From Octopus vulgaris (taxonomy: Eukaryota): DNA of 64,000 nucleotides. Shown here in pieces: positions 30,944 through 54,230 of this stretch. The stretch spans positions 50,034,001 to 50,098,000 of the forward strand of contig OX597828.1 in the NCBI GenBank assembly GCA_951406725.2. The letters run 5' to 3'. The notes beneath the pieces were generated by a model. That model searched no databases and was not told the DNA's origin. It worked only from the letters and a program-made list of their open reading frames with translations. Position 1 is the first letter of the stretch. Every line of letters begins with the position of its first letter. A program made the position numbers and the translations under genes.

Positions 30944-30977
30944 AGTTTGTGTGTGTGTTGCGGGGTGTCTTTTTGTA

Positions 30978-31489: not shown

Positions 31490-34228
31490 TATTTCTGCTT
31501 GGTTACATCATCTTAAGGTTCTCTGTGGGTGTATATATATCATTGTCATCATCACATTAACATCTACTTTTCCATGCTTGCATGTGTCAGACAGAGTTTA
31601 TTGAGACAGATTTTCTACAGCTCGATGCCATAATTGTTGTCAACCCTCTCCTTTTTTTCAAACAGGGTAATATTTCCCTCCATGATGAAACATGTTTTCA
31701 CAGAAATTTGGAAGTGAATTTACACTACTTGTATGACAATTATTTACAGCTATCATGTGATGTCAAAATAAGGGGACACAAAAATACACTCACACACCCA
31801 CAACTCTGACTGCCCCCTCCCTCCGCCGACTGATCTTGGTCGGTGTTTGTGGACACTACGCTTACTCTTTTACTTGTTTCAGTCACTTGACTGTGGCCAT
31901 GCTGGAGCACTGCCTTTAGTGGAGCAAATTGACCCCAGGACTTATTCTTTGTAAGCCTATTACTTATTCTATCGGTCACTTTTGCCGAACTGCTAAGTTA
32001 TGGGGATGTAAACACACCAGCATCGGTTAAGCGATGTTGGGGGGACAAACATAGACACTCACACATACGTATATATATACACACACACACATATATACGA
32101 TGGGTTTCTGTCTACCAAATCCACTCATGAGGGCTATAGTAGAAGACACTTGCCCAAGGTGCCACGCAGTGGGACTGAACCCGGAACCAAGTGGTTGGTA
32201 AGCAAGCTACTTTATTTTATTAAATTTGCCATAAAGGCAATACAGAGAGGGGACACTACAACACATGTGGGGACATATAACATTAAAAAATAAAATATGA
32301 TATAATTAATGAACATGAAAATGCACATGAAGAACAAATTAAAATATGATAAATATGATATTATGAAGAGTGTGCTACTCACCCCACACTGAGTAACACA
32401 ACTCGCTGTCTCTGGGTCCTGAGTCCCTTTTTCTCGTTTCATCCAATCCTTTTCCCCTTTTCACTGTCACTTAAAGATAACATTCTCTCTGTCATGCATT
32501 CATATCCTTTTTCATCGGGAGGGGGGTCTTCTAAATTTTGTGGTATCTGGTCTTTCTTTTTCTTTTTTTCTTGAGGGGAAATGGGGGTGGGTGGGTTTGG
32601 TGTCTGTATGGGGAGGGTGGGTCTGAGTGGTCTTGGGTGGGATGGGGTTGGACTGGGGTACCACATCATACTCAGTGTCTTTTCTTTTTTCCTCTTTCTC
32701 CTTTTGCATTCTGCAATTTTCCATTCTTCCTCTTTTTTATCGTTTCCTTCGTCTATTTTGTCTTCCTCTCTTTTCTCTTCTGTCTCCGCAACTATATCCT
32801 CAGCCATAATTCTTCGTAGAGGGCAGTATGCTCTAATCTGGCCCTTTTGGCCACATTTAAAGCAACGTGGTACTCTGCCCTCTACCCACACCCTCAGCAC
32901 GATTTCCCCCTGCATCACAGTCTCTGCCAAGTTCTCGAGTTGTCCCTCCTCCGTCTGAATAATTAATTCGAGCGTCCTTCCTTTCCACCCTCCTTCTTCC
33001 ATTTCCGTGGCCTGGAGGACAGCCACTTCCTCTTCACTTCCAATGAGGACGGCTGCCACAACCCAAGCCACATTTATATCAGGCGGAATTCCTTCTACCC
33101 TTATCTTGGAAGTCCTTCTTCCAAGATACGTGGGTAGAAGGACCATTTCCTTCGTCTTTACCGTTTTACCCACCAGCCTCCTTGCCTCCTCCTCTTCTAA
33201 ACTGGACTACCATTGTCCCATATTGGCATCCTCTTGTCATGTATATTACTCCGTTGGATTCCTCCTTTACTGCCTTTTCTATTTTCTCTATTTCTATTAG
33301 GTCGACCGTCTTACTCTTTATCGAGTAATAATAATAATAATAGTTGTGTACAGTGCTCAGGTGCACTACAACTCATCTAAAGTGTATGTATAGTACATAG
33401 GGTAATGTACAAGCGTCAGGAAAAGAACAGTGCATGAGTCATGACATACACGTATGAGTATGGAAGGGGGACAATCAGTTGTAGTTTCGGCGGATTTCGG
33501 AAAGCATGAGGGCCTTAAAAGATGCAGTGTCATGGCAGTCAACAACTGACGCAGGCAGTTTATTCCATGTTTCTGAAAGTCATGGGAGCTGTGTTGTTTT
33601 CTGACTTTGTAGGCATGTCCACGTGTGTTGGACACATGGAGATCAAAAAGGTGTTCAGTGTTGTTGTTGGTGAGGTGGTTGATAACTTGGTGGGTGTTTA
33701 CCAAGTCCATCGCCAGACGCTGGAGCTTCAGTGAATCCATGCCCAGGGAAACAAGGCGCTCAGATTATGGTAGGTCTCTGATAGAGGGTATGTGTTTGGT
33801 TACACGTCTCTGAACAGATTCCAGGAGGTCAATGTTCTGAGCAAGATAGGGGTTCCGAACTGATGATGCGAATTCCAATAGATGGCTGGAGAGCGGCTAA
33901 CAAAAGTCCTGCTGAGTGATGCCAAGACACCCTCGGCCTTCTTGACAATTTTAGAGATATGCTTTGTCCAACGCAAATCACTGCTGACAGTGATGCCTAG
34001 GTCACACTCGCAAGAGGATCTCTTGGTATCAGTGTTATGGAGGGAGTATGTGGACGCAGGGTTTTTTCTCCCAAAACGCATGGTGGTACACTTGTCCACA
34101 GCCAGTTTCAGTTGCCAGTCTGTGATCCATTGCTGCATTGTGTCTAGGTCTGATTGCAGGAAAGAGTTGTAGACATCAGGATCTGTCCTCTTGATTTCAA
34201 GGTACAGCTTGATGTTGTCTGCATATTT

Positions 34229-34328
34229 NNNNNNNNNNNNNNNNNNNNNNNNNNNNNNNNNNNNNNNNNNNNNNNNNNNNNNNNNNNNNNNNNNNNNNNN
34301 NNNNNNNNNNNNNNNNNNNNNNNNNNNN
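34229..34328. other. 100-N scaffold gap flanked by a 3.84-kb overlap duplication
   Basis: 30388-34228 is repeated at 34329-38170 with only a few small indels in low-complexity runs. The repeat includes a second copy of the METTL6 last exon (34739-34884). Confidence 0.9.
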
Positions 34329-36152
34329 TGCTGTCATGTGTAGGACGAATTTGGTTATCGGCCGAGTCCCTTGTGAATATTGCCCTGCAGCCTGACTGGC
34401 CCCTGTGCCGGTGGCATGTAGAAGCACCCACTACACTCTCGAAGTGGTTGGTGTTAGGAAGGGCATCCAGCTGTAGTAAACTCTGCCAGATCAAGATTGG
34501 AGCCTGGTGCAGCCATCTGGTTCGCCAGCCCTCAGTCAAACCGTCCAACCCATGCTAGCATGGAAAGTGGACGTTAAACAACGACGATGATGATGATACA
34601 CACACACACACAAACAGCTGTTGTACATTGTAGAATTATATTTAGCACAGTATGGTACAGTATATAGTATAGTATATACTATAGTACAGTATATGCTGAC
34701 ACCTTTAATATTAAAGCTATTCTTTCTTTCTTTTTCAGAGTTTATTGAACATTTACTGTGTGATGCTGGTTATGATATCCGTCAACTCCATTATGTGAAA
34801 CGGGAGACTGTCAACAAGAAAGAAGGGCTTTGTGTACCACGTATATTTGTACAAGGGAAGTTCATGGTGACAACATCTTCTTGAAGTTTGTGTGTGTGTT
34901 GCGGGGTGTCTTTTTGTACCGTAAATCCTCGAGTATAGTCCGCCCTTAAGTATAATATGCAGGGTATTTTTAGGGGCTGTACCTCTGAAAAACTGAAACC
35001 TTGTTTATAATACGCACCCCTTCTCTAAATTGAGTCAAGGAGGTGTACATAATGTCCTTGGTTTGTAAAAATGTATACGGTAACGTCGTTTATTAGTATT
35101 GTATATATAACATAATGCAAACGTGTAGCTTTTTTGTGCATTTTGTTTGCAGAAAATAAAGAAATAACAGTAATAACGTTTAATAAATGTTGCTTACTGC
35201 AAGTTATGGATGATTCTTTTATGACTTCATTGCTTTCAGGCTTAGCTTAAGGTATTTTCGCGCCCGACATCACAAAATGCGTCTGAATAAACATTGCCGG
35301 ACAGCAAATAGAGACTCGGACATTGCTTAGAAAATAATTTTCATTTTTAACTGCGTATATAGTACGCACTCGGGATTTTGACCCTTAAATTTTGGGGAAA
35401 AAATGCGGATTATACTTGAGGATTTACGGTATTTCTGCTTGGTTACATCATCTTAAGGTTCTCTGTGGGTGTATATATATCATTGTCATCATCACATTAA
35501 CATCTACTTTTCCATGCTTGCATGTGTCAGACAGAGTTTATTGAGACAGATTTTCTACAGCTCGATGCCATAATTGTTGTCAACCCTCTCCTTTTTTTCA
35601 AACAGGGTAATATTTCCCTCCATGATGAAACATGTTTTCACAGAAATTTGGAAGTGAATTTACACTACTTGTATGACAATTATTTACAGCTATCATGTGA
35701 TGTCAAAATAAGGGGACACAAAAATACACTCACACACCCACAACTCTGACTGCCCCCTCCCTCCGCCGACTGATCTTGGTCGGTGTTTGTGGACACTACG
35801 CTTACTCTTTTACTTGTTTCAGTCACTTGACTGTGGCCATGCTGGAGCACTGCCTTTAGTGGAGCAAATTGACCCCAGGACTTATTCTTTGTAAGCCTAT
35901 TACTTATTCTATCGGTCACTTTTGCCGAACTGCTAAGTTATGGGGATGTAAACACACCAGCATCGGTTAAGCGATGTTGGGGGGACAAACATAGACACTC
36001 ACACATACGTATATATATACACACACACACATATATACGATGGGTTTCTGTCTACCAAATCCACTCATGAGGGCTATAGTAGAAGACACTTGCCCAAGGT
36101 GCCACGCAGTGGGACTGAACCCGGAACCAAGTGGTTGGTAAGCAAGCTACTT

Positions 36153-37266
36153 TATTTTATTAAATTTGCCATAAAGGCAATACAGAGAGGGGACACTACA
36201 ACACATGTGGGGACATATAACATTAAAAAATAAAATATGATATAATTAATGAACATGAAAATGCACATGAAGAACAAATTAAAATATGATAAATATGATA
36301 TTATGAAGAGTGTGCTACTCACCCCACACTGAGTAACACAACTCGCTGTCTCTGGGTCCTGAGTCCCTTTTTCTCGTTTCATCCAATCCTTTTCCCCTTT
36401 TCACTGTCACTTAAAGATAACATTCTCTCTGTCATGCATTCATATCCTTTTTCATCGGGAGGGGGGTCTTCTAAATTTTGTGGTATCTGGTCTTTCTTTT
36501 TCTTTTTTTCTTGAGGGGAAATGGGGGTGGGTGGGTTTGGTGTCTGTATGGGGAGGGTGGGTCTGAGTGGTCTTGGGTGGGATGGGGTTGGACTGGGGTA
36601 CCACATCATACTCAGTGTCTTTTCTTTTTTTCCTCTTTCTCTCTTTTGCATTCTGCAATTTTCCATTCTTCCTCTTTTTTATCGTTTCCTTCGTCTATTT
36701 TGTCTTCCTCTCTTTTCTCTTCTGTCTCCGCAACTATATCCTCAGCCATAATTCTTCGTAGAGGGCAGTATGCTCTAATCTGGCCCTTTTGGCCACATTT
36801 AAAGCAACGTGGTACTCTGCCCTCTACCCACACCCTCAGCACGATTTCCCCCTGCATCACAGTCTCTGCCAAGTTCTCGAGTTGTCCCTCCTCCGTCTGA
36901 ATAATTAATTCGAGCGTCCTTCCTTTCCACCCTCCTTCTTCCATTTCCGTGGCCTGGAGGACAGCCACTTCCTCTTCACTTCCAATGAGGACGGCTGCCA
37001 CAACCCAAGCCACATTTATATCAGGCGGAATTCCTTCTACCCTTATCTTGGAAGTCCTTCTTCCAAGATACGTGGGTAGAAGGACCATTTCCTTCGTCTT
37101 TACCGTTTTACCCACCAGCCTCCTTGCCTCCTCCTCTTCTAAACTGGACTACCATTGTCCCATATTGGCATCCTCTTGTCATGTATATTACTCCGTTGGA
37201 TTCCTCCTTTACTGCCTTTTCTATTTTCTCTATTTCTATTAGGTCGACCGTCTTACTCTTTATCGA
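36153..37266 (-). mobile_element. Tx1/L1-like element: ORF1 fragment joined to a 3' UTR and A-rich tail, no ORF2 (artefactual copy at 32213-33324)
   Basis: LLPTYLGRRTSKIRVEGIPP...VEGRVPRCFKCGQKGQIRAYC (zinc knuckle); ends TTTAATAAAATA next to the TSD. Confidence 0.75.
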
Positions 37267-40200
37267 GTAATAATAATAATAATAGTTGTGTACAGTGCTC
37301 AGGTGCACTACAACTCATCTAAAGTGTATGTATAGTACATAGGGTAATGTACAAGCGTCAGGAAAAGAACAGTGCATGAGTCATGACATACACGTATGAG
37401 TATGGAAGGGGGACAATCAGTTGTAGTTTCGGCGGATTTCGGAAAGCATGAGGGCCTTAAAAGATGCAGTGTCATGGCAGTCAACAACTGACGCAGGCAG
37501 TTTATTCCATGTTTCTGAAAGTCATGGGAGCTGTGTTGTTTTCTGACTTTGTAGGCATGTCCACGTGTGTTGGACACATGGAGATCAAAAAGGTGTTCAG
37601 TGTTGTTGTTGGTGAGGTGGTTGATAACTTGGTGGGTGTTTACCAAGTCCATCGCCAGACGCTGGAGCTTCAGTGAATCCATGCCCAGGGAAACAAGGCG
37701 CTCAGATTATGGTAGGTCTCTGATAGAGGGTATGTGTTTGGTTACACGTCTCTGAACAGATTCCAGGAGGTCAATGTTCTGAGCAAGATAGGGGTTCCGA
37801 ACTGATGATGCGAATTCCAATAGATGGCTGGAGAGCGGCTAACAAAAGTCCTGCTGAGTGATGCCAAGACACCCTCGGCCTTCTTGACAATTTTAGAGAT
37901 ATGCTTTGTCCAACGCAAATCACTGCTGACAGTGATGCCTAGGTCACACTCGCAAGAGGATCTCTTGGTATCAGTGTTATGGAGGGAGTATGTGGACGCA
38001 GGGTTTTTTCTCCCAAAACGCATGGTGGTACACTTGTCCACAGCCAGTTTCAGTTGCCAGTCTGTGATCCATTGCTGCATTGTGTCTAGGTCTGATTGCA
38101 GGAAAGAGTTGTAGACATCAGGATCTGTCCTCTTGATTTCAAGGTACAGCTTGATGTTGTCTGCATATTTCAATACTGTGGCATTCTTTAAATAGGGAAC
38201 TATGTCATTAATGTATGCTATAAACAAGAGGGGCCCAAGAACAGATCCCTGTGGTACACCCGATGACATCTCATATGGTGTAGAATGCTGTCCTAGAACT
38301 GTGACTACCTCCTTTCGGCTGAGAACGAAGGATTTCAACCAGTTAAAAAGATCATCCCTCACACCCATTGCAGAGTTCACCATAAGCCTTTTGTGTGGCA
38401 CAGAATTAAAAGCCTTAGCAAAGTCAAGGTAGACAACATCCACCCATGAGCCACTGTCAGTAATCTGAGTAATGTCCTCAAGGAACTCGACAAGCTGATC
38501 ACTGCAGCTGGAGTTAGGGACAAATCCATATTGTGAGGGTCGGATGAGACTGTGAGAGTTCCAGAAGTTCCAAAGTGTTTCTCTGACACACGATTCCATC
38601 AGTTTTGCAATACAGCTAGTGAGACTGACTGGGCGATAGTTGACAGGTGATGTGCGGTCGCCCTTTTTGAACAGAGGAATGACACTGGCAGTTTTCCACT
38701 GCTCCGGAGTAGCACCATTGTTGAGACAGTACTGGAAAAAAATAGAAAGCTGGTGTGAAAGGAAGTACCTGCCATGTTTGAGAAGCAGGTGTGTAATGCC
38801 ATCAAGACCAGGGGAGGCATAGTTGCGCTTATTTTGAAGGTGACGTCGCAGCATTGCAGGTGTAAATTCCATAGTTGTTATGGAATTTGCTGTTAGAGAT
38901 GGTGAAGATGGTACATTTTGATTTTCAACTGTGAATATGCTTGCATAGCACTTGGCAATGAGTTCTGCACATTCCTTGGGATTGTCAGTGATCTGGCTTG
39001 TGTGAGGGTTGCGAAGAGGGCCCACTGGAGAGTGAGGTCTCTGCTTCGAATGCACATATTTCCAGAAAACCTTGCTGTCAGGATTGGCTGCTATGCACTG
39101 TTCAAATTCAAGCACTGCTTTTTTGTCACTTGCTTGAGATGGTTGGAAGATTTATTCCGTTTTTTCCTGTTGGTGTCTGATTTATGCAACTTGTATTCCC
39201 GTTCAGCAGTCCGACGTTCCTTCCTGGCAAGTCGGACCGCTGAAGTTTCCCAAATTGCACTTTTGGACAGTTCTTATTTTTCTGTTTACGTGGCACTGAT
39301 GCTGCACATACAGCCCATATTGAGTCCAGGATACTCTGGAGTATAGTATTCACATCTCCAGAGTTGTAGAATTCACGCCAGTTTGGGTGCTGTAATTCAG
39401 TGTGGTACAGGTTCCAATCGAAGGAAGCAGATTGGAGATGGTTCAGGTTTTTGTTGTTGCCCACAAGAGCCAGATTGGTGATAATCATAGCATGATCAGA
39501 GTCACCTAGAGGTTCCTCCGTAGTACAATTGATAACCGCTTCAGGAGTTGTGGTGAAGAGCAGGTCCAAGGTGTTGTCGCCTCTTGTTGGAGAGGTGACT
39601 ACTTGTGACCAGTTTGAGTCCAGTACAAGCTCAACGAAATCGTTTGCACTCTGTGGCCAATGGAAGGTTTCCCAATTGATCTCAGGATGATTGAAGTCGC
39701 CTGCAATAAAAACATAAGTGGCTGTTTTCCTGGCAGCAGCTCGGAGTATATCGCAAAGCTGTGTGTCTTGACGGTAATTTGGGGGACGATAAACAATGCC
39801 AAGCAGGTGTGTTGACATGGTCATACGTACGTCACAGAAAAAAACTTCTTGTGATTCATTCAAATCAGCGCAAGGAATTACCGAAAAATTTGAACGAACG
39901 TAGACCATCACACCACCACCACGGCGGTTAATGCGGTCCTTGCGGAAAAGGTTGTACCCAGTAATATTGAAAACCCCATCACAGAGTAAGGAATGTGCCC
40001 ATGTTTCCGTGACTGTGATGAAGTCAGGGTCAATACTTCTGACATAGGAGTTGAACAGATGTATTTTGTTGCATAAACTGCGAGCATTTAAGGACAACAA
40101 TTTGTACCCTGCTTGCAGTTTATGATGGTGTGTAGAGGATGGCAGGTTGTTCTGGTTTAGTTTCCCAGAGTTGCTGTAGTTTTTTTTCCATTTTCAGTTA

Positions 40201-40645
40201 TTGTGGGTAGGGAGCACTCAGACCAGTTGTTATCTCTCTTCCACGTTTCACCAGTCTTAACAAATCTCCAGATTTGTCCATCCTCACAAAGACTGAAACT
40301 TTCTTGTAGAGCTGAGTTCCGGTTCAGGGAAGCCGCTACACGTAGCTTCGGACGTACATCGGGTGGTAAGCCTGGGCGTGTTCGGAAGGTAGTCCGATTT
40401 TGACACCCAGCTTTAACTGAGTATGCTATGAGGTTACCTCAGCGTGGTCTGAAAAAGACAGCTTGATGAGCCGGGGTTTTGGGCCAGGTCGTCCAAGGCG
40501 GAGAGCACCCGTTGGGGGAACGCAGCCTAGGTCTTTGGCTGAGTTGGCAGCAAATGCCTGAAGACCAGCCATGTCTTCTGGTACCCCAATGGCAATAACT
40601 TCGTGGGTAGCAGAATCCGCGGTCTTCTCTGTTTTTAAATGCGGA
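37267..40645 (-). mobile_element. CR1-clade LINE, complete but inactivated ORF2 plus ORF1 end
   Basis: APE endonuclease SLNARSL, ITVTETW, GDFN, DLLF, SDH; RT NYRPVSLTS, YLDFAKAF, GVPQGSVLGPLLF, YADN (catalytic YADD mutated); frameshifts; (TAT)n tail at 37267-37283. Confidence 0.9.
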
Positions 40646-43600
40646 AAGAGGTACAGATGTGGTAATGGTCCAGTACCATATATTAGTATGCTTGCATTGG
40701 TCATTGTTAGGCTACCATTGTCTTTCTATGGCAGTCTCCTAAGAAATCTGGTGTGTTCCAGACACTCAGAGAAGGCTTGGATCCTATCTTTCTCGAAAGG
40801 GTTATTAATAATGTAACTGTTCTTTTATGATGTCATCTTTTTGGTCAATATTTAAAAATAGATTTTGTCTTCTATAGATAGAATTGGTTTGTGGTTGAGG
40901 AAATTTCCTTCATTTGGTATAAAGCATCCCTCCCATTGCCTGATGGAATGGTTCCCATTTCTCATATATTGGTAAGTTATAGTGCTTGGGTTGGGGACAA
41001 ATCTTGCTTTGTCTTTTCTTTTAACATTTGACTTCTCTCCAGGATGATTTTCCAGGTATTTCGGCGATGCTGCTGATTGGGTTGGGGTCCAGGGCTTTGT
41101 ATTTAGGAGCATTATGGGCCTCCCTCAGGAACTCTGTACACTTTCTTTGAGGTTGCTCAATCTTCCAGATTTTGCTTCACCTAGCAGTATTTTGATGAGT
41201 CCTTGGTCAATTGAGCCCTTTTGTTTTTTTCATCTCATATGGTGTAGAATGCTGTCCTAGAACTGTGACTACCTCCTTTCGGCTGAGAACGAAGGATTTC
41301 AACCAGTTAAAAAGATCATCCCTCACACCCATTGCAGAGTTCACCATAAGCCTTTTGTGTGGCACAGAATTAAAAGCCTTAGCAAAGTCAAGGTAGACAA
41401 CATCCACCCATGAGCCACTGTCAGTGATCTGAGTAATGTCCTCAAGGAACTCGACAAGCTGATCACTGCAGCTGGAGTTAGGGACAAATCCATATTGTGA
41501 GGGTCGGATGAGACTGTGAGAGTTCCAGAAGTTCCAAAGTGTTTCTCTGACACACGATTCCATCAGTTTTGCAATACAGCTAGTGAGACTGACTGGGCGA
41601 TAGTTGACAGGTGATGTGCGGTCGCCCTTTTTGAACAGAGGAATGACACTGGCAGTTTTCCACTGCTCCGGAGTAGCACCATTGTTGAGACAGTACTGGA
41701 AAAAAATAGAAAGCTGGTGTGAAAGGAAGTACCTGCCATGTTTGAGAAGCAGGTGTGTAATGCCATCAAGACCAGGGGAGGCATAGTTGCGCTTATTTTG
41801 AAGGTGACGTCGCAGCATTGCAGGTGTAAATTCCATAGTTGTTATGGAATTTGCTGTTAGAGATGGTGAAGATGGTACATTTTGATTTTCAACTGTGAAT
41901 ATGCTTGCATAGCACTTGGCAATGAGTTCTGCACATTCCTTGGGATTGTCAGTGATCTGGCTTGTGTGAGGGTTGCGAAGAGGGCCCACTGGAGAGTGAG
42001 GTCTCTGCTTCGAATGCACATATTTCCAGAAAACCTTGCTGTCAGGATTGGCTGCTATGCACTGTTCAAATTCAAGCACTGCTTTTTTTGTCACTTGCTT
42101 GAGATGGTTGGAAGATTTATTCCGTTTTTTCCTGTTGGTGTCTGATTTATGCAACTTGTATTCCCGTTCAGCAGTCCGACGTTCCTTCCTGGCAAGTCGG
42201 ACCGCTGAAGTTTCCCAAATTGCACTTTTGGACAGTTCTTATTTTTCTGTTTACGTGGCACTGATGCTGCACATACAGCCCATATTGAGTCCAGGATACT
42301 CTGGAGTATAGTATTCACATCTCCAGAGTTGTAGAATTCACGCCAGTTTGGGTGCTGTAATTCAGTGTGGTACAGGTTCCAATCGAAGGAAGCAGATTGG
42401 AGATGGTTCAGGTTTTTGTTGTTGCCCACAAGAGCCAGATTGGTGATAATCATAGCATGATCAGAGTCACCTAGAGGTTCCTCCGTAGTACAATTGATAA
42501 CCGCTTCAGGAGTTGTGGTGAAGAGCAGGTCCAAGGTGTTGTCGCCTCTTGTTGGAGAGGTGACTACTTGTGACCAGTTTGAGTCCAGTACAAGCTCAAC
42601 GAAATCGTTTGCACTCTGTGGCCAATGGAAGGTTTCCCAATTGATCTCAGGATGATTGAAGTCGCCTGCAATAAAAACATAAGTGGCTGTTTTCCTGGCA
42701 GCAGCTCGGAGTATATCGCAAAGCTGTGTGTCTTGACGGTAATTTGGGGGACGATAAACAATGCCAAGCAGGTGTGTTGACATGGTCATACGTACGTCAC
42801 AGAAAAAAACTTCTTGTGATTCATTCAAATCAGCGCAAGGAATTACCGAAAAATTTGAACGAACGTAGACCATCACACCACCACCACGGCGGTTAATGCG
42901 GTCCTTGCGGAAAAGGTTGTACCCAGTAATATTGAAAACCCCATCACAGAGTAAGGAATGTGCCCATGTTTCCGTGACTGTGATGAAGTCAGGGTCAATA
43001 CTTCTGACATAGGAGTTGAACAGATGTATTTTGTTGCATAAACTGCGAGCATTTAAGGACAACAATTTGTACCCTGCTTGCAGTTTATGATGGTGTGTAG
43101 AGGATGGCAGGTTGTTCTGGTTTAGTTTCCCAGAGTTGCTGTAGTTTTTTTTCCATTTTCAGTTATTGTGGGTAGGGAGCACTCAGACCAGTTGTTATCT
43201 CTCTTCCACGTTTCACCAGTCTTAACAAATCTCCAGATTTGTCCATCCTCACAAAGACTGAAACTTTCTTGTAGAGCTGAGTTCCGGTTCAGGGAAGCCG
43301 CTACACGTAGCTTCGGACGTACATCGGGTGGTAAGCCTGGGCGTGTTCGGAAGGTAGTCCGATTTTGACACCCAGCTTTAACTGAGTATGCTATGAGGTT
43401 ACCTCAGCGTGGTCTGAAAAAGACAGCTTGATGAGCCGGGGTTTTGGGCCAGGTCGTCCAAGGCGGAGAGCACCCGTTGGGGGAACGCAGCCTAGGTCTT
43501 TGGCTGAGTTGGCAGCAAATGCCTGAAGACCAGCCATGTCTTCTGGTACCCCAATGGCAATAACTTCGTGGGTAGCAGAATCCGCGGTCTTCTCTGTTTT

Positions 43601-45340
43601 TAAATGCGGAAAGAGGTACAGATGTGGTAATGGTCCAGTACCATATATTAGTATGCTTGCATTGGTCATTGTTAGGCTACCATTGTCTTTCTATGGCAGT
43701 CTCCTAAGAAATCTGGTGTGTTCCAGACACTCAGAGAAGGCTTGGATCCTATCTTTCTCGAAAGGGTTATTAATAATGTAACTGTTCTTTTATGATGTCA
43801 TCTTTTTGGTCAATATTTAAAAATAGATTTTGTCTTCTATAGATAGAATTGGTTTGTGGTTGAGGAAATTTCCTTCATTTGGTATAAAGCATCCCTCCCA
43901 TTGCCTGATGGAATGGTTCCCATTTCTCATATATTGGTAAGTTATAGTGCTTGGGTTGGGGACAAATCTTGCTTTGTCTTTTCTTTTAACATTTGACTTC
44001 TCTCCAGGATGATTTTCCAGGTATTTCGGCGATGCTGCTGATTGGGTTGGGGTCCAGGGCTTTGTATTTAGGAGCATTATGGGCCTCCCTCAGGAACTCT
44101 GTACACTTTCTTTGAGGTTGCTCAATCTTCCAGATTTTGCTTCACCTAGCAGTATTTTGATGAGTCCTTGGTCAATTGAGCCCTTTTGTTTTTTTCATCT
44201 CATATGGTGTAGAATGCTGTCCTAGAACTGTGACTACCTCCTTTCGGCTGAGAACGAAGGATTTCAACCAGTTAAAAAGATCATCCCTCACACCCATTGC
44301 AGAGTTCACCATAAGCCTTTTGTGTGGCACAGAATTAAAAGCCTTAGCAAAGTCAAGGTAGACAACATCCACCCATGAGCCACTGTCAGTGATCTGAGTA
44401 ATGTCCTCAAGGAACTCGACAAGCTGATCACTGCAGCTGGAGTTAGGGACAAATCCATATTGTGAGGGTCGGATGAGACTGTGAGAGTTCCAGAAGTTCC
44501 AAAGTGTTTCTCTGACACACGATTCCATCAGTTTTGCAATACAGCTAGTGAGACTGACTGGGCGATAGTTGACAGGTGATGTGCGGTCGCCCTTTTTGAA
44601 CAGAGGAATGACACTGGCAGTTTTCCACTGCTCCGGAGTAGCACCATTGTTGAGACAGTACTGGAAAAAAATAGAAAGCTGGTGTGAAAGGAAGTACCTG
44701 CCATGTTTGAGAAGCAGGTGTGTAATGCCATCAAGACCAGGGGAGGCATAGTTGCGCTTATTTTGAAGGTGACGTCGCAGCATTGCAGGTGTAAATTCCA
44801 TAGTTGTTATGGAATTTGCTGTTAGAGATGGTGAAGATGGTACATTTTGATTTTCAACTGTGAATATGCTTGCATAGCACTCGGCAATGAGTTCTGCACA
44901 TTCCTTGGGATTGTCAGTGATCTGGCTTGTGTGAGGGTTGCGAAGAGGGCCCACTGGAGAGTGAGGTCTCTGCTTCGAATGCACATATTTCCAGAAAACC
45001 TTGCTGTCAGGATTGGCTGCTATGCACTGTTCAAATTCAAGCACTGCTTTTTTTGTCACTTGCTTGAGATGGTTGGAAGATTTATTCCGTTTTTTCCTGT
45101 TGTTGTCTGATTTATGCAACTTGTATTCCCGTTCAGCAGTCCGACGTTCCTTCCTGGCAAGTCGGACTGCTGAAGTTTCCCAAATTGCACTTTTGGACAG
45201 TTCTTATTTTTCTGTTTACGTGGCACTGATGCTGCACATACAGCCCATATTGAGTCCAGGATACTCTGGAGTATAGTATTCACATCTCCAGAGTTGTAGA
45301 ATTCACACCAGTTTGGGTGCTGTAATTCAGTGTGGTACAG
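38267..45340 (-). repeat. Tandem array of a 2965-bp CR1+Hero unit (about 2.4 copies)
   Basis: Units start at 38267, 41231 and 44196; identical junction TTTTTTT|CATCTCATATGG at 41231 and 44196. Confidence 0.9.
40646..41230 (-). mobile_element. Highly decayed Hero/NeSL-type (RLE-clade) RT fragment; repeated at 43611-44195
   Basis: IKILLGEAKSGRL, EGCFIPNE, SIEDKIYF, FSECLEHT, YG..PH resemble Hero RT motifs; several stops. Confidence 0.6.
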
Positions 45341-46281
45341 TGTTAATGCGTGGTCGGCCCACTTTCTTGGAGCGATGGACTTTTTTAGGTAGAATCCTCA
45401 CCCTACTTCTAATTAGTGAGTGGTCTGTGTCACAATCCGCGCTGTGGTAACTGCGGGTCAATAGAGTAGAATTCAGGAAGGATCTCCATGTAATGATGAG
45501 ATCCAGCTGATGCCAGTGGTGAGATCTTGGATGTCTCCAAGATGCCTTGTGGGATGGCTTGTTGGTAAAGAATGTGTTTGTGATGCACAGGTTGTGGTAT
45601 GTGCAGAATTCGAGTAGTCTCTGACCATTGTCATTCATGTTGCCAATATCAAAGTGTCCAACACAAATGGGCCACGAATCATGGTCAGATCCCACGCGAG
45701 CGTTAAAATCCCCTAGAAGGTAGATATTTTCAGTCGTTAGTATATTTTCTATGACACAGTTGAGATCTTTGTAGAACTGGTCCTTGGTCTCCTCTGAGCT
45801 GTAGAGAGTGGGAGCATAGATGCTGAGTAGATGTACTGAGCCAGAAGAAGTCGAGAGGATACGCTCACTGCCTCCTGATGGTGGTTCTAGAGGAGAGTAA
45901 TGAGTCTCTCACTGCAAAGCCAAGACCATGCTGATGAGGTTCTTCTGGATCGCTTCCCTGCCAAAAGAAGGTGAAATCCTGTTCTTTGAGTTTGCTGTTT
46001 GAGGGGAGTCTTGTTTCCTGCAGTCCAGCAATGTCTATGTTAAGCCTCTTTAGTTCACAGTCAATGATGGCTGTCTTTCTTGTGTCTTCAGCCCTGAGTA
46101 GGTCATCAGATATGCCAGGGCACATGGTCCTGACATTCCAGCTTGCTAACCACAGGACTGGTGGTTTCTTGTCTTTTAATTGTTTTCCTGGTGCAGAGGT
46201 TGCAGGCCATTTTTCAAGTCAAATTCTTCACTCCAAGCACCCAATGAAGCAGGCGGCCTGTGGTGGGTCAGCACCTTATTA
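45341..46281 (-). mobile_element. RTE-clade LINE 5' part with APE endonuclease
   Basis: LASWNVRTMCPG, DIAGLQETRL, SIYAPTL, LGDFNARVG, SWRHPRSHHWHQLDLII, SADCDTDH. Confidence 0.85.
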
Positions 46282-46580
46282 AATTTAGCTTGGTCTAAAT
46301 GGACCAGTGCCCCACCTTTGCCAGAATCATTATCAAACTCTTCTACAGTGTAGCGTATAAGATGAAGATTATCCTGGATGGCTCTGCCAGGGACTGCACA
46401 GGTTTGTGCCTTCCCGATCAGGTCATCCATGACATGTGTCAATCTTTTTCCTAACACTTTGGCCAAAATCTTCATCTCCGCGTTCAGCAGCATGATGGGC
46501 CTAAAATTGTGTATCCTATCCCCCTTGTCCAGGTCCTTCTTGACCAGCGTCACCACTCCCTGGCACACAGAGCTATCTCC
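46282..46580 (-). mobile_element. Tx1/L1-clade RT fragment
   Basis: NFRPIMLLNAEMKILAKVL...QTCAVPGRAIQDNLHLIR...LVHLDQAK. Confidence 0.85.
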
Positions 46581-47640
46581 CACTCTGTCTCTTCTTTATT
46601 TTCACTGTCATTTTCTTCTCTGCTTTCTTCCTCTGTTTTTTCCATCCTCTGTAGTTTCGTCTTCCAAGTCTTCTTCAATGTTCTCCTCTTTTTCTTTTTC
46701 TTCACCATTTTTGCATTCGGACCTAACATGGCCCTTCTTTCCACATTTAAAACACCTGAGTTTTCTACCCACCACCATGACTACTAACTTCGTATACATT
46801 GTATCTCTGACCTCTGGAATTTTTTCTAGGGTCATAGGCTCTGCTTGGATCAGCATTTTTATTATCTGGCCAAGCCAGACTGTGTCTTCTGTTACTTCCA
46901 CAGAAAGAAGTGTTATTTCTTCTAGGTCGTACAGTACTGCCGCTACTAGCCATTTGGCATTAACCTCCGGTGGTACACAGCTTATCTTTATTTGGGAGGT
47001 TCTCCTCTCCATATAAATCGGCAACAGTACCACCTCATCCGTTCGCAGCAGCTCCACAGAACACTTTTGCACCTGTTCCACTGTTGACATCCTCACTTCA
47101 ACAGTTGCATATCTTTTTCCTCTGGCCAAATATTTGATGTCTTTCCAAATTGGCCTTAAACATTTTTCTACATTTTTGTCATTTACATAGTCAATTCTTT
47201 TCTTTTCAACGTTATATGTTTTGAACACTACAGTCCTTTCGAGTGCATCATCAATGATGCTATGAGGAGGGGCCACCTTTCGTTAATGCCTCTTTTAAGC
47301 GTTTGTTTGCAACTCCAACCTTTATTTCGGTCCCTTCTTTTGTTAATAGCTCTTGGTGTGCCTTCAAATTGGTTGTATCAGTTTTCCTTGAGTTTCCACC
47401 AGCGGCAGCCGCAAAGCTCCTTATTGGTTCCTCCCCAGTTGCAAGGCTGGGCGCGTCAGTATTCCTTCTGCTCACTACGGAATCCTTGCTGGTACTTGGC
47501 ACTGAAGATACACTCTCCCTACACACGACAGTACCTTCCATTGTGTAAAAACACAAATAAATACAGTAAAACGTTTCCCCGCACGGGGGAATTAAAACAG
47601 ATTTTGCTTCAAAACAAGCAATAAACAGTTCCTTTGTTTT
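46581..47640 (-). mobile_element. Tx1-like ORF1 (second subfamily) with partial 5' UTR
   Basis: ATG near 47542; ERTVVFKTY...LLPIYMERRTSQIKI...CFKCGKKGHVRSEC (CCHC); one frameshift. Confidence 0.8.
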
Positions 47641-50600
47641 GGATTCGAGGTGCTGGTTTAAAACCAGTCTCTTGGCCTTCACCTGAGATGCACTGCCAGT
47701 TCGCATTGCTTCCTCTAAGTCCTTAACTAATTCTGATCCCCTGCTAACCTCTCTAGCTACTACACTTATGCTATATCTAATAGACTCGTATCTAATGGCT
47801 CGCTTGAGGGCATACCACCATTTGTTGTTAATAATGGATCCTCTGAATCAGGTCTCTGAATCAGTAACCTAATCCTATCTCTGTACTCCTTAATTGCCAA
47901 AAGGGACGTATTAAGTTTCCAGTAGCCAGGACCTCTATGTAACTTATCTATGTCTAGCCTACAGCTGACCATCTTGTGATCACTGTAGCTTACCATGTGA
48001 AGCTGTGGACTCCTAGCTATTTTTCTATCTGCTTTTCTAATTAATATTCTATCTATATACGACCTGAAAGATCCGTTGCTGTTTGACCATGTCCTCAATG
48101 GAGCGTTCGGATGTACCAGTCTATATGGGTCTACCAGCTATAAATGTCTTAGTAGATCCTGGAAGCAAGTATTTCCTCTCCTATCAGTTCGCGAGCCTCC
48201 ACAGTCTACCCGCGCATCGTAAACTGTGTTGAAGTCTCCTTGTATAGCTAAAGGATATGATGTACTAAGAAACTTTTCTAGGTTCCGAAAATATTCGCTT
48301 TGTTCCCCTGAAGTGTGAGGTGCGTAAACCGCAACCAGTCTGATTTTCTTACAGCTGCTGAACATCAAGTCAACGACGACCAGCCTACCTTCTGGATCTG
48401 AAAAAATCTACTTTTTCTCAGAAACCCGGTTCTTTTTGCAGAGGACCGACACCCTACTTCCGCTGGGCGGACGGCTCGGAGAGACAATCCTCTTGCAACC
48501 GCCAAACAGCAGGAGCAGATCTCTTGGCCCTTTTAACCAGGTTTCTGTGGCAACAATAACATCTAAATCCTGTGACCTGATGTCATTTAGGAAGCACCCT
48601 TGCTTCTAGCTCGACATCAGACCACGCACATTTATGCACCCTACTTGAATGCGAGACATCACCTACCTTAATCGGTCTTCTTTATTTTCTCGGCAGCTCG
48701 TGGGGTAAAATTCCGGCATACTTTGTCCACTAGTGAACCATGTAGGTCGTGTCATGGTCCGAATATGCTGGACTTATGTACGTTTCTTAGGATATTAAAG
48801 TTCCTTTTGTCTACTTTGTATGTTTCAACATTATTTGGTAGATTTTTGTGTGTTTGGCATTTCTGTGCCAGTGTGTTATTGTCCAGATCTTTCATGAGTC
48901 TGTCATTTTTTGTCGACCGCCATGTACACTGTTTCAGGAGATGTAAAGGACATATCTTCTTCTGAGGAAGATTCTCCTGAACTTGGTGAAGGGTTGGACG
49001 AGGAGGTGGAGCCTTGGAGGGGTGGGAATTGTTCATCGTTGAGGGGTGAGGGTGGTTGTGGTGGGTTAGATGGGTGGGGCTTCACTTTTTTTCTTTTTGT
49101 GGGGAACCATGGTGGGGTGGGTTTGTTTTTCCTTGTGTGTTTGCTGTGTTCTTTTTCTTGTTTGTGCTTGGGTTGGGTGGGAATAAATCTTCGTTCCTTC
49201 ACTTGGGTTTTTTTTCTCTGTCTCACCGGGGTGAACTCCTCTTCTCTTTGTTCTTGCCTGAGTTCCTGGTGTTTTTTACTTTCTTTTTGTCTTCTCTCTT
49301 CCGCTTCCTTCTTTTTTTCCTCCTCCTCTTTTTTCTGGGTGGGGCATTTGGCTCGAATGTGACCTTTCTCGCCACATTCATAGCACCTAGGTTTTCTACC
49401 CTCTACCAGCACTCGCAACGTAATCTCCTCACTGAAGTTTATGTTTTCAATGATCTCTTTGAGAGTTTCCGGACTTGCTTGAATTGTGATTTCAAGGCTC
49501 TGACCCCGCCAGTTTTGTTTCAGAACTCTCGTCACCTCGATGATGGTGATTTTATCCTCTAGCTCCATTATTAAAGCTGGAAGTAACCACTCCACATTAA
49601 TCTCTGGCGGAATTTCCTCTATTTTCACTTTGGCGGAATTTCCTCTATTTTCACTTTGGCCGTTCTTCTGCCTAGGTATGTTGGCAAAAGTATGATATCG
49701 TTCTTATTGGCTTTAACGAGTGAAATTTTGCCTTCTTCTCGTCTTTGTAATAAACCACTATTGTGGCATATTTCTTCCCACAAGTGATATAATCTATGTC
49801 ACCCCAAATAGCTTGGAGGCACCTCTCTGCCTGTTCAGTGGTGACTTTTTCTATCTTTTTATCCTTTATTATGAAGGATTTGTACACGATGATTCTTTCC
49901 TGTGTCTGTTTCAGGATATCACTTGGGAGGGCGGCCTTGGCATCGGTCCCCTCCCTCTTGTACATATTTTTGTATTTCATGTAGTCGCACTCATTTAGGT
50001 TTAAAACCTCTTGCTTTTGGCCAGCTGCAGCTGCAAACTTTACTGTTTTTTCCCCGTTGCTTGACTCTTCACTGATCTGTTTGTTCTTTTCGGAAGCTGA
50101 TTTCCCACTGGTTTGCATATTCTTTTCAAAATCGGTTCCAGCAGATTTTTCATAAGTTTCTTGGTTCTTTTCAGAATCGGTTTTAACTGATTTTTCACAA
50201 ATTTGTTTTTCCATGGTTTTTCCAGAGGATGAACCTCTAACAGATGAAATAGATGCCATTTCTACTGAGATCATTTTTTTCTGCCAAAGCCACTATGTCT
50301 TCAGTATCCATTTTTGGGTTTTTTTTTTTTTAAGAAAGAAAGAATATATTTTTGTGTAAAATCACAAATGAAGCACTTTTCCCCTCCTTATGGAGAGGAA
50401 CAACAGTTTTTTTTGTCTGTTCCAAGACAGACACACAAGTCAACAACCAACAAAATTCAATTAAACACAACTTACTTCAACAATCCAAAAACGAGAAATG
50501 ACGGTTCGACGTGACTTTACTTCTCTTCAGATTTTCAACACCAGGGGAGGGTGAGATCTTTATATCCCCACCCTCTTCTTTTGTTCTCTCAAAAAGCTCA

Positions 50601-50645
50601 AGAGAGCTTCTCCGTTTCAATAACAATATCTATTGAAGACACAGC
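47641..50645 (-). mobile_element. Tx1-like LINE (third subfamily): 5' UTR, ORF1 (50274-~48670), ORF2 endonuclease (48659-~47645), 3'-truncated
   Basis: ORF1 CYECGEKGHIRAKC; ORF2 MSRIQVGCINVRGL...VATET, VAVYAP, GDFN, SYIDRILI, SDH, GPGYWKLNTSLL; stops and frameshifts. Confidence 0.85.
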
Positions 50646-51290
50646 GGCTACTGCCGTGAACTTTTTTGCTGGCTCATGCAGCTGGTTCTTTTCTTGGGTG
50701 GAGGCGCAATGGCCCAGTAGTTAGGGCAGCGGTCGTAGGATCGCGGTTTCGATTCCCAGACCGGGTGTTGTGAGTGTTTATTGAGCGAAAACACCTAAAG
50801 CTCCACAAGGCTCCGGCAGGGATGGTGGTGGTCCCTGCTGTACTCTTTCACCACAACTTTCTCTCACTCTTCCTGTTTCTGTTGTACCTGTATTTCAAAG
50901 GGCCGGCCTTGTCACTCTCTGTGTCACGTTGAATATCCCCGAGAATTACGTTAAGGGTACACGTGTCTGTGGAGTGCTCAGCCACTTACATGTTAATTTC
51001 ACGAGCAGGCTGTTCCATTGATCGGATCAACCGGAACCCTCATCGTCGTAGCCGACGGAGTGCTTCCATCCATCCATCTTTTCTTGGGTTATTTCGACTG
51101 ACATATTTGTTTGAAATAAATGAAACAATTCAATCCCTGAAAAAGGGAAACCTATAATTTTTTAACTTTTTTTTCCCTCTTAATGAGGACAACAGTTCAA
51201 ATGCCGCCCCTGCTGGTGGGTGAGACGTAGCAACAAAGCCTGCGACATTCGAAATTAATTTTTTTTTTTTCACACAATAATATAATATAG

Positions 51291-51521
51291 TGTTATATTT
51301 CGGAATGGTCATATTGCCAGTTTAGCCAATAAAAACACACGCACTATATATTTGGTGTTACTTTGCTTCAGCGTTATTTATGTTTTACATTAATCTTAAT
51401 CTTATTTCGGCCAGATTAAGATTAATGTAAAAAAATAACACTGAAGCAAAGTAACACCAAATATATAGTGCGTGTGTTTTTATTGGCTAAACTGGCAAAA
51501 TGACCATTCCGAAATATAACA
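51291..51521. repeat. Near-perfect ~110-bp inverted repeat (long hairpin, ~10-nt loop)
   Basis: 51291-51402 is the reverse complement of 51413-51521 with few mismatches. Confidence 0.9.
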
Positions 51522-52453
51522 ATATCTGTTTCAACACGACTTCACATAAAAAAATCTTGCACAACAAATATTTAAACGTACTAATATAATATAGAATCCC
51601 CCAAAACAGGAAACCTATAATATTTTTTTCCTCACAACGAGGACAACAGTTCAAATCTTGCCCACGCTAGTTGCAGATGCCACAATAGAGCCTACAATGG
51701 CTAAAATTAAATTTTTTTTTTTTTTTTCCACAATAATAAATTGTTTATCCCCAAAAACGGGAAACCTATAATATTTTTTTTTTTCCTCTTAATGAGGATA
51801 ACAGTTCAAATGCCACCCCCGCTGGGGGTGGGGGGGGGGGGCATGGCAATAAAGCCTACAATGGCTTTAATAAGTTAAATATTAATAGTATTAATAATTT
51901 CAATATTTCAACAATTACTTTCTCCTGTCACCGGAAAAAAGCACAAAAATTTTCAAAGTTCACGAAAATATTCAACAATAGGCGCAGGAGTGGCTGTGTG
52001 GTAAGTATCTTGCTAATCAACCACATGGTTCTGGGTTCAGTCCCACTGCATGGCATCTTGGGCAAGTGTCTTCTGCTATAGCCCCGGGCTGACCAATACC
52101 TTGTGAGTGGATTTGGTAGATGGAAACTGAAAGAAGTCTCGTATATATATATATGTATGTGTGTGTGTGTGTGTTTGTTAGTGTGTTTGTCCCCCTAGCA
52201 TTGCTTGACAACCGATGCTGGTGTGTTTATGTCCCCGTTACTTAGCGGTTTGGCAAAAGGGACCGATAGAATAAGTACTGGGCTTACAAAAGAATAAGTC
52301 CCGGGGTCAAGTTGCTCGATTAAAGGCGGTGCTCCAGCATGGCCGCAGTCAAATGACTGAAACAAGTAACAGAACAGAAAAATAGAAAAATTATCCACGT
52401 GCAACAAAATGTTTGACTCACCGCTAAAAAAAGACGTCCGTCTACGACAAACA

Positions 52454-52489
52454 TAAGCAAGCTACTTACCACACAGCCACTCCTATGCC
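52454..52489 (-). mobile_element. Displaced 5' head of the SINE A copy at 35805-36152, including the 14-bp TSD
   Basis: TAAGCAAGCTACTTACCACACAGCCACTCCTATGCC supplies exactly the part missing from the SINE that ends at 36152. Confidence 0.75.
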
Positions 52490-53819
52490 AATTATTCGGA
52501 ATTGTATTAAAAAAAAATTGTATTTCGAGTTAATTGTAGATAAATTTTAACAACAAAATCTAACATGGACTCCTGTTGAGAAGTACTGGTCTGATCCATG
52601 GGAGCATGGAAATTCAAATCCAGAATGAACAAACGAATGTTGATTTCACTGAAAAAGTTCCTGTCTATTATCAGCATCAAACTAAATTAATATAAATGTT
52701 ATATTCGTTATGCAACTATAATTTATGTACCGAGTATGTTCAATAAAGGAACCCTTCTGGTTATTAAATTTTATACTCCCACTATATCAATGCAAAATCT
52801 TCTTTCATTGCTGTAATAAAATCCTTAATTTAATTCAAAACCGCTTGGCTTTCTTCCTTCAAAATTTGTTTTCTGTAAGTTTCCATTTCTAATTCTTTGT
52901 GTAACTTTAGCTTTGGAAGAATTGTACATTTGGTTCTTGTTAAATGATAGATTTTCAAATGAAATCATCATCATCATCATTTAACGTCCGCTTTCCATGC
53001 TAGCATGGGTTGGACGAATGACTGAGGGCTGGCGAACCAAGTGGCTGCACCAGGCTCCAGTCTTGATCTGGTAGAGTTTCTACAGCTGGATGCCCTTCCT
53101 AACGCCAACCACTCCGAGAGTGTAGTGGGTGCTTTTTATGTGCCACCGGCATGGGGCCAGTCAGGTGATACTGTCAATGATCTTGAATCTCTTATACATG
53201 CCACCAGCACAGGTGCCAGTGAGGTGACGCTGGTAACGATCATGCTCGAATGGTGCCTTTTACGTGCCACCGGCACGGAGGCCAGATAGCCGCTCTGGCA
53301 ACAATCACGCTTGGATGGTGCTCTTAATACCCTACTAGCACGGGTCTTGAGTGCCAGTAAGGCAACACTGGTAACGATCACGCTCGAATGGTGCCTTTTA
53401 GGTGCCATTGGTACTGAAGCCAGTTAGCCGCTCTGTCAATGGTCACACTCGTATGGTGCTCTTTGCACAACGTCTGATGTTGTTTAGGGCAACGTGAAGA
53501 TGGAGTCAGATCTTGGCAGCGGAATTTTAGTGATGCTGATTGAGAGCATCCTAAATGCGAAAGGTGGATAGGGTTAGGTAGGTGTTGTAGTGGGACTAGG
53601 GAGAAAATACATGTGGTATTGAGGGTGCTATTTTAGGAGGAAGAATATTTTGGGATGTTAAATTATGGTTGACTGAAGAAAACAGAAGTTTGATCAGGGG
53701 AAACTGATCAAAAAAATTGTGAAACGAATAGTATTTAATTGACAGCATAGGGTGAAGAGAAGTGACGATGGGATTCAGATCATCTAATATAATAACGAGA
53801 GCACTTGTTTTCATATAAT

Positions 53820-54230
53820 TGTATGGTCGGGTCGTTGGCGACTAAACCGGCAACCCCACCAAGCTTGCTTGGTGAGGAGGGTGTTTATTGGACACCCTGC
53901 AGGATAAAAGCAAAACCCGTCAAAGGGCGGAGGAACTCTTGAGAGTCAACGGCCATCCAATAAATGTCTTAAGGCTGCATCATGCGCGGAGACATAGAAA
54001 TAATCGGATTGAATACCCGATCGCGCGATTAAATCATTGGGGGTGAAGGACTCCTAGCCTTTGTTAGGGCATCCTTCTAAGAGAAGGTAATTCAGGTAAC
54101 TGGGATAACTCTGACATAAAACCTGTGGCTCAGTGGTTACCGATGATGTTGACTTGTTCTTCTTTTCGGATTATGGCTGCTGTTGCTTAGTGATTGGGAT
54201 TGACTCAGTGCACAGCCATTCCACACTTTA
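53820..54230 (+). mobile_element. RTE-like 5' UTR-derived repeat
   Basis: CTAGCCTTTG...GAGAAGG...ACTCTGACATAAAACC resembles recalled RTE 5' UTR motifs; no ORF. Confidence 0.4.

Follow-up and report, generated by a model that had tools for sequence, protein, structure and literature searches.

A block of fragments from at least four LINE lineages inside one split SINE near METTL6 of Octopus vulgaris: a possible chimeric insertion

How fragments of several unrelated long interspersed nuclear elements (LINEs) came to lie in one orientation inside a single short interspersed nuclear element (SINE) is the question raised by a locus of Octopus vulgaris. The window, which is the whole stretch of DNA analysed, comprises 64,000 nucleotides (assembly GCA_951406725.2, contig OX597828.1, positions 50,034,001 to 50,098,000 of the forward strand), and all coordinates below are window positions. 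In it a copy of a SINE family, here termed SINE A, is interrupted by a block of LINE pieces that begins 1.2 kb beyond the stop codon of METTL6 and points back at that gene. The block is a real, unusual single-locus structure with no sign of spreading, and it is a chimeric LINE insertion if one event built it. The answer tentatively preferred, at rather less than an even chance, is that a single Tx1-primed episode of reverse transcription, in which the enzyme jumped between templates several times, joined most of the pieces, and that local remodelling followed; such gradings are judgements, not computed odds.

The ends of the block are marked by the two parts of SINE A, a body and a lone head, which stand on the same strand with family positions that overlap by exactly 14. 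The overlap is a perfect 14-bp direct repeat, extendable on neither side, and complementary SINE halves around 14-mers at 36139 and 52454 had been described in an original prediction made from the sequence. Head and body are about equally diverged from the family consensus (2/26 versus 26/296 sites). Between the 14-mers lie 16,301 bp, or about 13.3 kb without an internal tandem unit, in agreement with the sizes first given. The 14-mer had also been held to distinguish this copy from other SINE A copies, and it is indeed absent in its exact form from all seven of them; its two variable columns carry the majority or plurality letter, so that it is near the family consensus rather than diagnostic of a copy, and its identity is no proof of a single SINE copy. 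Inside the block it was found with up to two mismatches in the inner SINE A only; a third copy at 32199 lies within an assembly overlap (Table 1). No convincing target-site duplication (TSD) was found in the five SINE A copies checked, while four of five copies of a second family, SINE B, have TSDs of 12-13 bp; the two halves thus cannot be paired by a TSD of their own, and the case for a TSD is one of geometry. That geometry is strong, and the 14-bp repeat is best read as a single TSD, in the range of about 7-20 bp, around all parts. A candidate priming end lies directly on the SINE A body, where the piece named Z, which has only a first open reading frame (ORF1), finishes in the A tail described earlier; the tail is A-rich and merely 11 nt long.

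Read on the minus strand, the block consists of a 5' part, the Tx1-like pieces X and Y, a reverse transcriptase (RT) piece, an RTE-like piece, a CR1-like piece (CR1a), a Hero-like piece, further CR1, the repeat unit, a CR1 tail and Z (Table 1). This order had been recognised from the start, as had the placement of every LINE piece on the minus strand. There are eight inner junctions in 13.3 kb when the extra unit is counted out, only one of which falls at a native LINE tail; the (ATT)n tail of CR1b matches two other CR1-like 3' ends in the window. The pieces are mostly 5' parts (untranslated regions (UTRs), ORF1s and endonucleases), and since none is an intact element, the block appears to be a dead, single-locus insertion that may be transcribed. 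No internal TSD was found for any LINE piece, so that the reported lack of internal TSDs holds for the LINEs and fails for the nested SINE B. The roughly 1.8 kb of non-LINE DNA noted earlier is present, and inside it are two SINEs antisense to the LINE pieces (the inner SINE A and SINE B), a palindrome resembling a miniature inverted-repeat transposable element (MITE) and three monomers that are 70-84% alike; the first 1.75 kb from 52453 looks old. A search of Rfam gave only four sub-threshold microRNA matches, which fall on the palindrome. Piece X had been described as ending at its endonuclease, and the X/Y junction is now placed near 47641, beyond the linker of X ORF2. The RT/RTE junction (46284/46283) was placed by the end of homology and a contig end; how a template would natively have run on is established for two junctions, and there on the CR1 side alone, and 2-3 nt of possible microhomology at RTE/CR1a were assigned from the reading frame.

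Table 1. Features of the LINE block, its SINE boundaries and the neighbouring sequence (window positions)
Feature	Position	Strand	Remarks
14-bp direct repeat, 3' (tail) side	36139-36152		
14-bp direct repeat, 5' side	52454-52467		
Host SINE A body	35802-36152	-	5'-truncated at about family position 23; 26/296 sites (8.8%) off window consensus
Host SINE A head	52454-52489	-	36 bp, ends at about family position 36
5' part	51077-52453		three monomers of 85-150 bp, MITE-like palindrome, SINE A
Inner SINE A	51981-52373	+	19/324 sites (5.9%) off consensus
Palindromic MITE-like element	51287-51525		in 5' part
SINE B, nested	50700-51076	+	own perfect 13-bp TSD, 50687-50699 / 51077-51089
Tx1-like X	47641-50699	-	5' UTR, ORF1 (frameshifts, 26-bp duplication), endonuclease with 3 stops, linker
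Tx1-like Y	46575-47640	-	about 95 nt of 5' UTR, ORF1 with zinc knuckle, C-terminus cut
Tx1/L1-like RT piece	46284-46574	-	97 codons
RTE-like 5' UTR piece and endonuclease	45341-46283	-	cut just past endonuclease domain
CR1a (copy A)	44196-45340	-	endonuclease end to mid-RT; 5 substitutions and 1 indel versus copy C
Extra tandem unit (copy B, about 2,964 bp)	41231-44195	-	Hero fossil 44195-43595 and CR1 43594-41231
Hero-like RT fossil, second copy	40630-41230	-	
CR1b (copy C)	37267-40629	-	ORF1 end, endonuclease, RT, (ATT)n tail; Pfam RVT_1, Exo_endo_phos
Tx1-like Z	36153-37266	-	5'-truncated ORF1 (37263-36379), about 220 nt of 3' UTR, 11-nt A-rich end
METTL6 last coding exon	34741-34878	+	phmmer match to METTL6 structures, E 5e-11
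METTL6 last exon, second copy	about 30800-30937		within probable assembly overlap
Probable assembly overlap	30388-34328		copy of 34329-38170 plus 100-N gap
LYAR	20511-21674	-	ORF of 388 codons, zf-LYAR; upstream of METTL6, opposite strand

Four features of single pieces were noted besides. The 5' UTR of X (50500-50600, minus strand) holds GC-box-like and TATA-like motifs and a GT donor-like site, a possible sense promoter. Summed depth in sequencing run X1 (described below) is 9,000-26,000 over the endonuclease and linker of X (47633-48946) and about 80-120 over its ORF1 (48947-50260), which could mean a fast-evolving ORF1 or a hidden ORF1/ORF2 junction. At the RTE/CR1a junction (45341/45340) the reading frames are joined within about one codon of the equivalent post-endonuclease position, probably by chance, this being one of eight junctions. 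Z passes from ORF1 to the 3' UTR with no trace of ORF2, and may represent a HAL1-like non-autonomous Tx1 family in octopus; a candidate ORF2 remnant in it was rejected, its best match being equalled in 23 of 200 shuffles.

The pieces were assigned to clades by their domains. The Tx1/L1 build (ORF1 with CCHC; ORF2 with endonuclease, RT and zf-RVT) was found for X, Y, Z and the RT piece: zf-CCHC is present in X and Y, Z is 40-42% identical to both, and relatives of the RT piece carry PF03372 in 3/6 and PF13966 in 5/6 cases. All four are taken to be Tx1 rather than L1. The RTE-like piece has an endonuclease domain, and one Atlas cluster was named CFDP2-like (score 0.96), CFDP2 presumably being a carrier of an RTE endonuclease. 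In the CR1-like pieces an ORF1, an ORF2 of endonuclease-RT build and an (ATT)n tail were seen, and from their motifs 37267-40629 and 44196-45340 are assumed to belong to the CR1 clade. The Hero-like piece shares RT motifs with five of seven matches (E 2.5e-5 to 6.7e-4; none of the matches is named), the longest of which has RVT_1 and no AP endonuclease; the Hero piece of the block lacks the nuclease part. Over the RT core it is 38-45% identical to six relatives, five of which are 58-71% alike, and P0010 is 95% like P0003. Protein searches with a Hero sub-piece and with X ORF1 gave no match, the PDB held nothing useful for the Hero piece, and none of four window ORFs had an exact match in the protein collection. 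The three endonuclease pieces do not match one another at E 0.01, which together with the Hero-like RT indicates at least four LINE lineages in the block. RTE, CR1, L1-Tx1 and Hero families are all given as recently active in O. vulgaris (PMC13282606).

Contigs of four sequencing runs from four studies (X1, X2 and X4 labelled organism A, X5 organism B) were aligned to positions 42377-55500, a range of 13,124 bases outside which lie the left end, Z and the CR1 tail junction. The results refer to the eight listed pieces per run out of about 490,000, and a junction was counted as bridged if a contig held 31 letters on both sides. The Y/RT junction is bridged in all four runs, and X/Y and CR1a/Hero are bridged in one (X4) among the pieces listed. 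Contigs of all four runs cross CR1a/Hero by 22-49 letters, those of the three runs other than X4 reaching 22, 30 and 30 letters into CR1; at Hero/CR1b the contigs of all four start at 43565, read as a 30-letter overlap into a high-copy repeat, and the junction coordinate is partly derived from these starts. RT/RTE, RTE/CR1a and the right end are unbridged among the listed pieces, contigs stopping inside the SINE head; the left junctions appear in the assembly twice, on the two sides of a 100-N gap. X1 departs from the window at one of 3,185 listed letters of single-copy sequence, and the window may derive from it; the other runs differ from the window by 0.2-0.6% (sums from listed pieces), and the inner junctions are thus common to different individuals. 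Those tested are real, with no misassembly there. Junction contigs have depths of 80 and 96 in X1 (single-copy 48-65), 26 and 20 in X2 (11-28) and 4-6 in X5 (3-10), near single-copy values, and the block therefore does not belong to a composite element family. Summed depth, a rough guide only, gives single-copy equivalents in the three DNA-like runs of about 1 for X ORF1, 8-13 for Y ORF1, 80-240 for CR1 ORF1 and 1,100-3,100 for CR1 RT, which suggests that the LINE 5' parts in the block are rare parts in genomic DNA; for SINE A the figure is about 3-5 x 10^5.

Some contig observations stand apart. An X2 contig over Y/RT continues for 148 letters beyond 46440 unlike the window, as another allele, an insertion or a second context would. 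Letters private to the CR1 copies (44255, 44304) have depths of about 203-207 in X1 and 50 in X2, above what copies A, B and C explain, and from this excess a sibling CR1 copy may exist. X4 has 12-20x contigs over single-copy parts of 43565-50162 from 74 million letters, and relative to SINE A depth is about 16-27-fold richer than the DNA runs; it was picked via this stretch and is strandless, and its want of listed contigs over the 5' part and flank carries no weight. That it is an RNA run is a guess, and it gives no more than a hint that the block is transcribed. Metagenome contigs gave no match for a Z 3'-end pattern or a SINE-head pattern, nor viral contigs for a SINE-body pattern.

Within the block, Hero and CR1 are repeated once as a unit of 2,964 bp that is 99.9% alike. 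Copy B has an A-type letter at 41426 and C-type letters at four sites between 41917 and 42342 and is thus an A/C recombinant, for which reason rolling-circle copying of a 2,964-nt unit was rejected; the repeat looks like the product of a recent unequal crossover between CR1a and CR1b, and an assembler loop would give the identical pattern. The Hero contig has a depth of 96 in X1 against 60-65 for three single-copy block contigs, 20 against 20-26 in X2 and 4-6 against 3-9 in X5. Contig depth being a weak measure, these figures hint at a genuine extra unit carried by one haplotype of X1, and the unit seems to vary between individuals.

A single episode of reverse transcription would have begun with a nick in the SINE A head, made by an enzyme of the Tx1/L1 type that then started synthesis at the A-rich end of the ORF1-only Z RNA; the ends are observed and the enzyme is presumed. 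From there the RT would have gone on to other LINE-bearing RNAs in sense orientation, either by jumping or because the RNAs had been ligated beforehand. These would have been a transcript that read through from a Hero-bearing flank into the tail of a dead CR1 copy, an RTE 5' fragment, Tx1 Y with the RT piece, and Tx1 X with upstream genomic DNA. Joining of the ends with the 14-bp TSD would have closed the process after some five or six templates rather than seven independent ones. In vitro, the serial jumping of templates is reportedly the subject of published work (PMC8594491, PMC8857657). Later, CR1a may have arisen or been homogenised locally from CR1b, as is partly borne out, and the unequal crossover, which is largely borne out, would have added the 2,964-bp unit. 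This reading leads narrowly on one TSD, one orientation, eight junctions with one native tail, the lack of SINEs and the prevalence of 5' parts. Co-orientation of six independent pieces has a chance of P 0.005-0.14, depending on the target motif assumed. About 36 SINE- or MITE-like repeats lie in 43.7 kb of flank (about 0.8 per kb) and none in the 11.6-kb LINE block, where 9.5 would be expected (P ~7e-5); as SINEs far outnumber LINE fragments in the flanks, their lack in the block argues against slow neutral nesting. Thus the chained reverse transcription originally proposed keeps a narrow lead, and the proposed count of about seven RNAs is too high, given the likeness of CR1a to CR1b, the long-dead Hero and the old 5' DNA.

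Several points weigh against a single episode, among them signs of unequal age. Stop codons number 4 in 199 codons of Hero (3 in clearly aligned parts), 3 in 335 of X ORF2 and 1 in 991 of CR1b, and none was found in X ORF1 (441 codons), Y (317), the RT piece (97), RTE (268), Z (291) or CR1a (377), with one further stop in the C-terminal extension of X ORF1; segment ends were set by eye around frameshifts, which biases these counts down. The 3-4 stops of Hero compare with 4 in 2,740 codons elsewhere (P 0.0007-0.006) and mark it as a long-dead fossil; X ORF2 compares with 1 in 2,405 in the remaining pieces (P 0.006), and the inner SINE A lies 5.9% off consensus; both, like the further stop in X ORF1, hint that X and the 5' part are older than the other pieces. 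Pooled decay of the non-Hero pieces is 1.4% (0.4-3.7%), compatible with one age, and decay of the templates before insertion could explain the unequal decay of Hero and X ORF2; the age data as a whole indicate at least three time layers, namely a fossil with old 5' DNA, young LINE pieces and a recent local duplication. CR1a and CR1b, which have a frameshift in common, differ at 5 of 1,144 sites (high-depth CR1 family contigs differ from CR1a at 10/464 and 15/265). This 0.44% is close to the allele-level difference between runs, so that at least one junction pair may post-date the founding of the block. That LINEs should make up almost all of the captured RNAs is an assumption. A surviving donor would be expected for Hero, but uninterrupted contigs of 653-683 nt cover Hero (3/4 runs) and one of 1,802 nt covers X ORF1 (X1). 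From a paralogue at 90%, 2.3 and 6.9 shared stretches of 31 letters, respectively, would be expected, which should usually break such contigs. No young, copied donor is therefore visible, nor, among the contigs at 92%, any donor of Hero or X ORF1, whose summed depth is about single-copy. Neither block end is bridged by independent data, which cover the contig range only, and in the available parts of the open literature on LINE chimeras there was none beyond three templates.

Stepwise build-up in place, with deletions and a hot spot or antisense selection, did not figure in the original prediction; it fits the ages about as well and is a close rival, possible and at the same time less probable than the single episode. 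An older Tx1 X with the Hero fossil as transduced flank would have made the TSD, SINEs would have entered its 5' part, Y, RTE, Z and CR1 would have followed, nested or at the same site, and several deletions, one with 1.1 kb of filler from the nearby CR1b, would have removed the 3' halves. This explains why X, Hero and the 5' part look older and why donors are absent; local remodelling is demonstrably under way, and an A-rich sense strand raises the chance of co-orientation to the upper figure above. All LINE pieces are antisense to METTL6, which lies on the plus strand, as for the upstream gene of a read-through cluster of Piwi-interacting RNAs (piRNAs), and insect piRNAs from read-through traps and antisense 3' UTR insertions are known (10.1101/2022.08.22.504762, PMC13226689). 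The price is four to five long LINE insertions and about four deletions in 12 kb with no SINE among them, so that a hot spot would be needed, or selection for a role as antisense piRNA trap, supplied by transcripts that run on from METTL6. LINEs alone would have been caught, though they make up 2,533 of 10,988 recently active transposable element insertions in O. vulgaris (PMC13282606, Table 1), no internal LINE TSD was left, the block ends sharply at its TSD, and a perfect 14-bp pair after 6-9% decay has a probability of 0.07-0.18. Serial nesting would keep 3' tails, with the other half of the host beyond; there is one inner tail only, and Z continues none of X, Y, RTE and Hero, though later deletions could have erased such signs.

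Assembly of the composite elsewhere, followed by retroposition of the whole as an RNA of about 13 kb ending at Z or by movement as DNA, with the donor since lost, is unlikely. One lost donor would cover all the absent relatives, mixed ages would be expected, and the TSD and A-rich end fit; the junction contigs are, however, near single-copy in three DNA-like runs, no donor is visible at 92%, a complete 13-kb complementary DNA (cDNA) would be unusual, and the question of assembly is merely shifted to the donor. The composite transcript offered as an alternative in the original prediction thus finds no support as a family, given these contigs and the unbroken ones over Hero and X ORF1. A fuller scenario, improbable as a whole, would start from sense LINE RNA fragments of four clades that came together in a single germline particle, for instance as products of piRNA slicing. 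A Tx1 RT would have strung them together in one event, and they would have landed antisense behind METTL6; read-through from the host gene would now yield a single transcript directed at six LINE families, and this small piRNA source would since have become common in the species. Very unlikely is a coincidental repeat pair, in which head and body derive from two SINE A copies and the block is a rearranged LINE graveyard: the 14-mer is near consensus, 5' truncation at similar positions is seen in two of seven other copies and SINE A is present in extremely large numbers, whereas a lone 36-bp head on the same strand with a 14-bp overlap and an A-rich LINE end on the body has a rough chance of about 1-2%, and the two parts are equally diverged. 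Misassembly of repeats from different loci is least probable of all. In its favour are a scaffold gap with a 3.8-kb overlap at 1.8 kb from the left end, the 99.9% tandem repeat within the block, and the two ends and four inner junctions that outside data do not bridge; against it speak the bridged junctions, the partial crossings at CR1a/Hero and Hero/CR1b in all four runs and the twice-assembled left junctions. Splicing was rejected as a source of the junctions (one fits a plus-strand GT/AG, CR1a/Hero does not), as was repeated site-specific insertion with inner TSDs, of which the LINE pieces have none.

In the neighbourhood, earlier METTL6-like exons were read by eye near 25192, 26397, 27709 and 28596, giving a METTL6 region of 25192-34878 (plus strand). 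The sequence 30388-34228 repeats 34329-38170 across the 100-N gap with three single-base indels and no substitutions, and is most likely an unmerged contig overlap; it contains second copies of the METTL6 last exon, of the host SINE body, of Z and of the CR1 3' end, and could mislead gene annotation. Tandem repeats of 184 bp (59904-60455) and 138 bp (53213-53463) lie within two SINE-like repeats, and one of 123 bp (27038-27283) lies within an intronic CR1 3' end.

If one event built the block, the number of templates joined in a natural LINE insertion would be about double that of the three-part chimeras found in the literature, and the joining would have crossed clades; LINE RNAs of different clades would then meet in one compartment, and a route would exist by which distant lineages swap 5' UTRs, ORF1s and endonucleases. 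If growth was stepwise, the locus would be a candidate for an antisense trap of recent origin that formed behind a housekeeping gene of a cephalopod. In either case METTL6 and the SINE halves make the site easy to recognise. Searches of the open literature turned up neither a description of this locus nor a LINE chain of four clades within a single TSD, subscription papers and Repbase being outside that scope.

Among known systems, tandems of transposable elements from double insertion at one site (10.1101/158386) are likewise co-oriented and gain copies by unequal exchange, as may the 2,964-bp unit; they have a TSD or intact tail at the junction and are mostly of one family, whereas in the octopus block the LINE pieces lack inner TSDs and a single inner tail is present. 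In read-through piRNA clusters and antisense 3' UTR traps (10.1101/2022.08.22.504762, PMC13226689), several mobile families likewise lie antisense to a host gene and just downstream of it, and piRNA clusters are described in molluscs (PMC6128900); the octopus block, a candidate at most, differs in having one bounding TSD and LINE pieces only. HAL1 (half-L1, PMC5753468), like Z, passes from ORF1 directly to a 3' UTR and A-rich end, Z being Tx1-like and either a family or a one-off deletion. Retrocopies made by multiple switches of long terminal repeat (LTR) elements (PMC5131818) likewise show more than two switches per cDNA and partial templates cut anywhere, but are LTR-flanked with measured microsimilarity, while no LTRs were seen here. 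Human L1 chimeras have been catalogued (10.1101/2025.02.02.635956), and nine de novo two-RNA L1 insertions are reported whose common orientation was read as template switching or RNA ligation before reverse transcription (PMC11702581); these U6/L1 and bipartite chimeras are likewise unique, non-propagating insertions, with small RNAs, Alu or mRNAs as partners and mostly two templates, where in the octopus block the partners are almost all LINE 5' parts. The insert described in PMC6500023 is an engineered one and has no bearing on the block. The tripartite LINE retrogenes (WEIRD/Mg-SINE/MGL of Magnaporthe and B2/U6/L1 of mouse; PMC2104539) are likewise co-oriented between short direct repeats, of 14 bp in the fungal three-template chimera, with a LINE 3' end at the tail. 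Their templates number three and the LINE at the 3' end is a coding one, whereas the octopus block combines, across 13 kb, at least five pieces of four LINE lineages with nested SINEs and a fossil, and its 3' piece has an ORF1 only.

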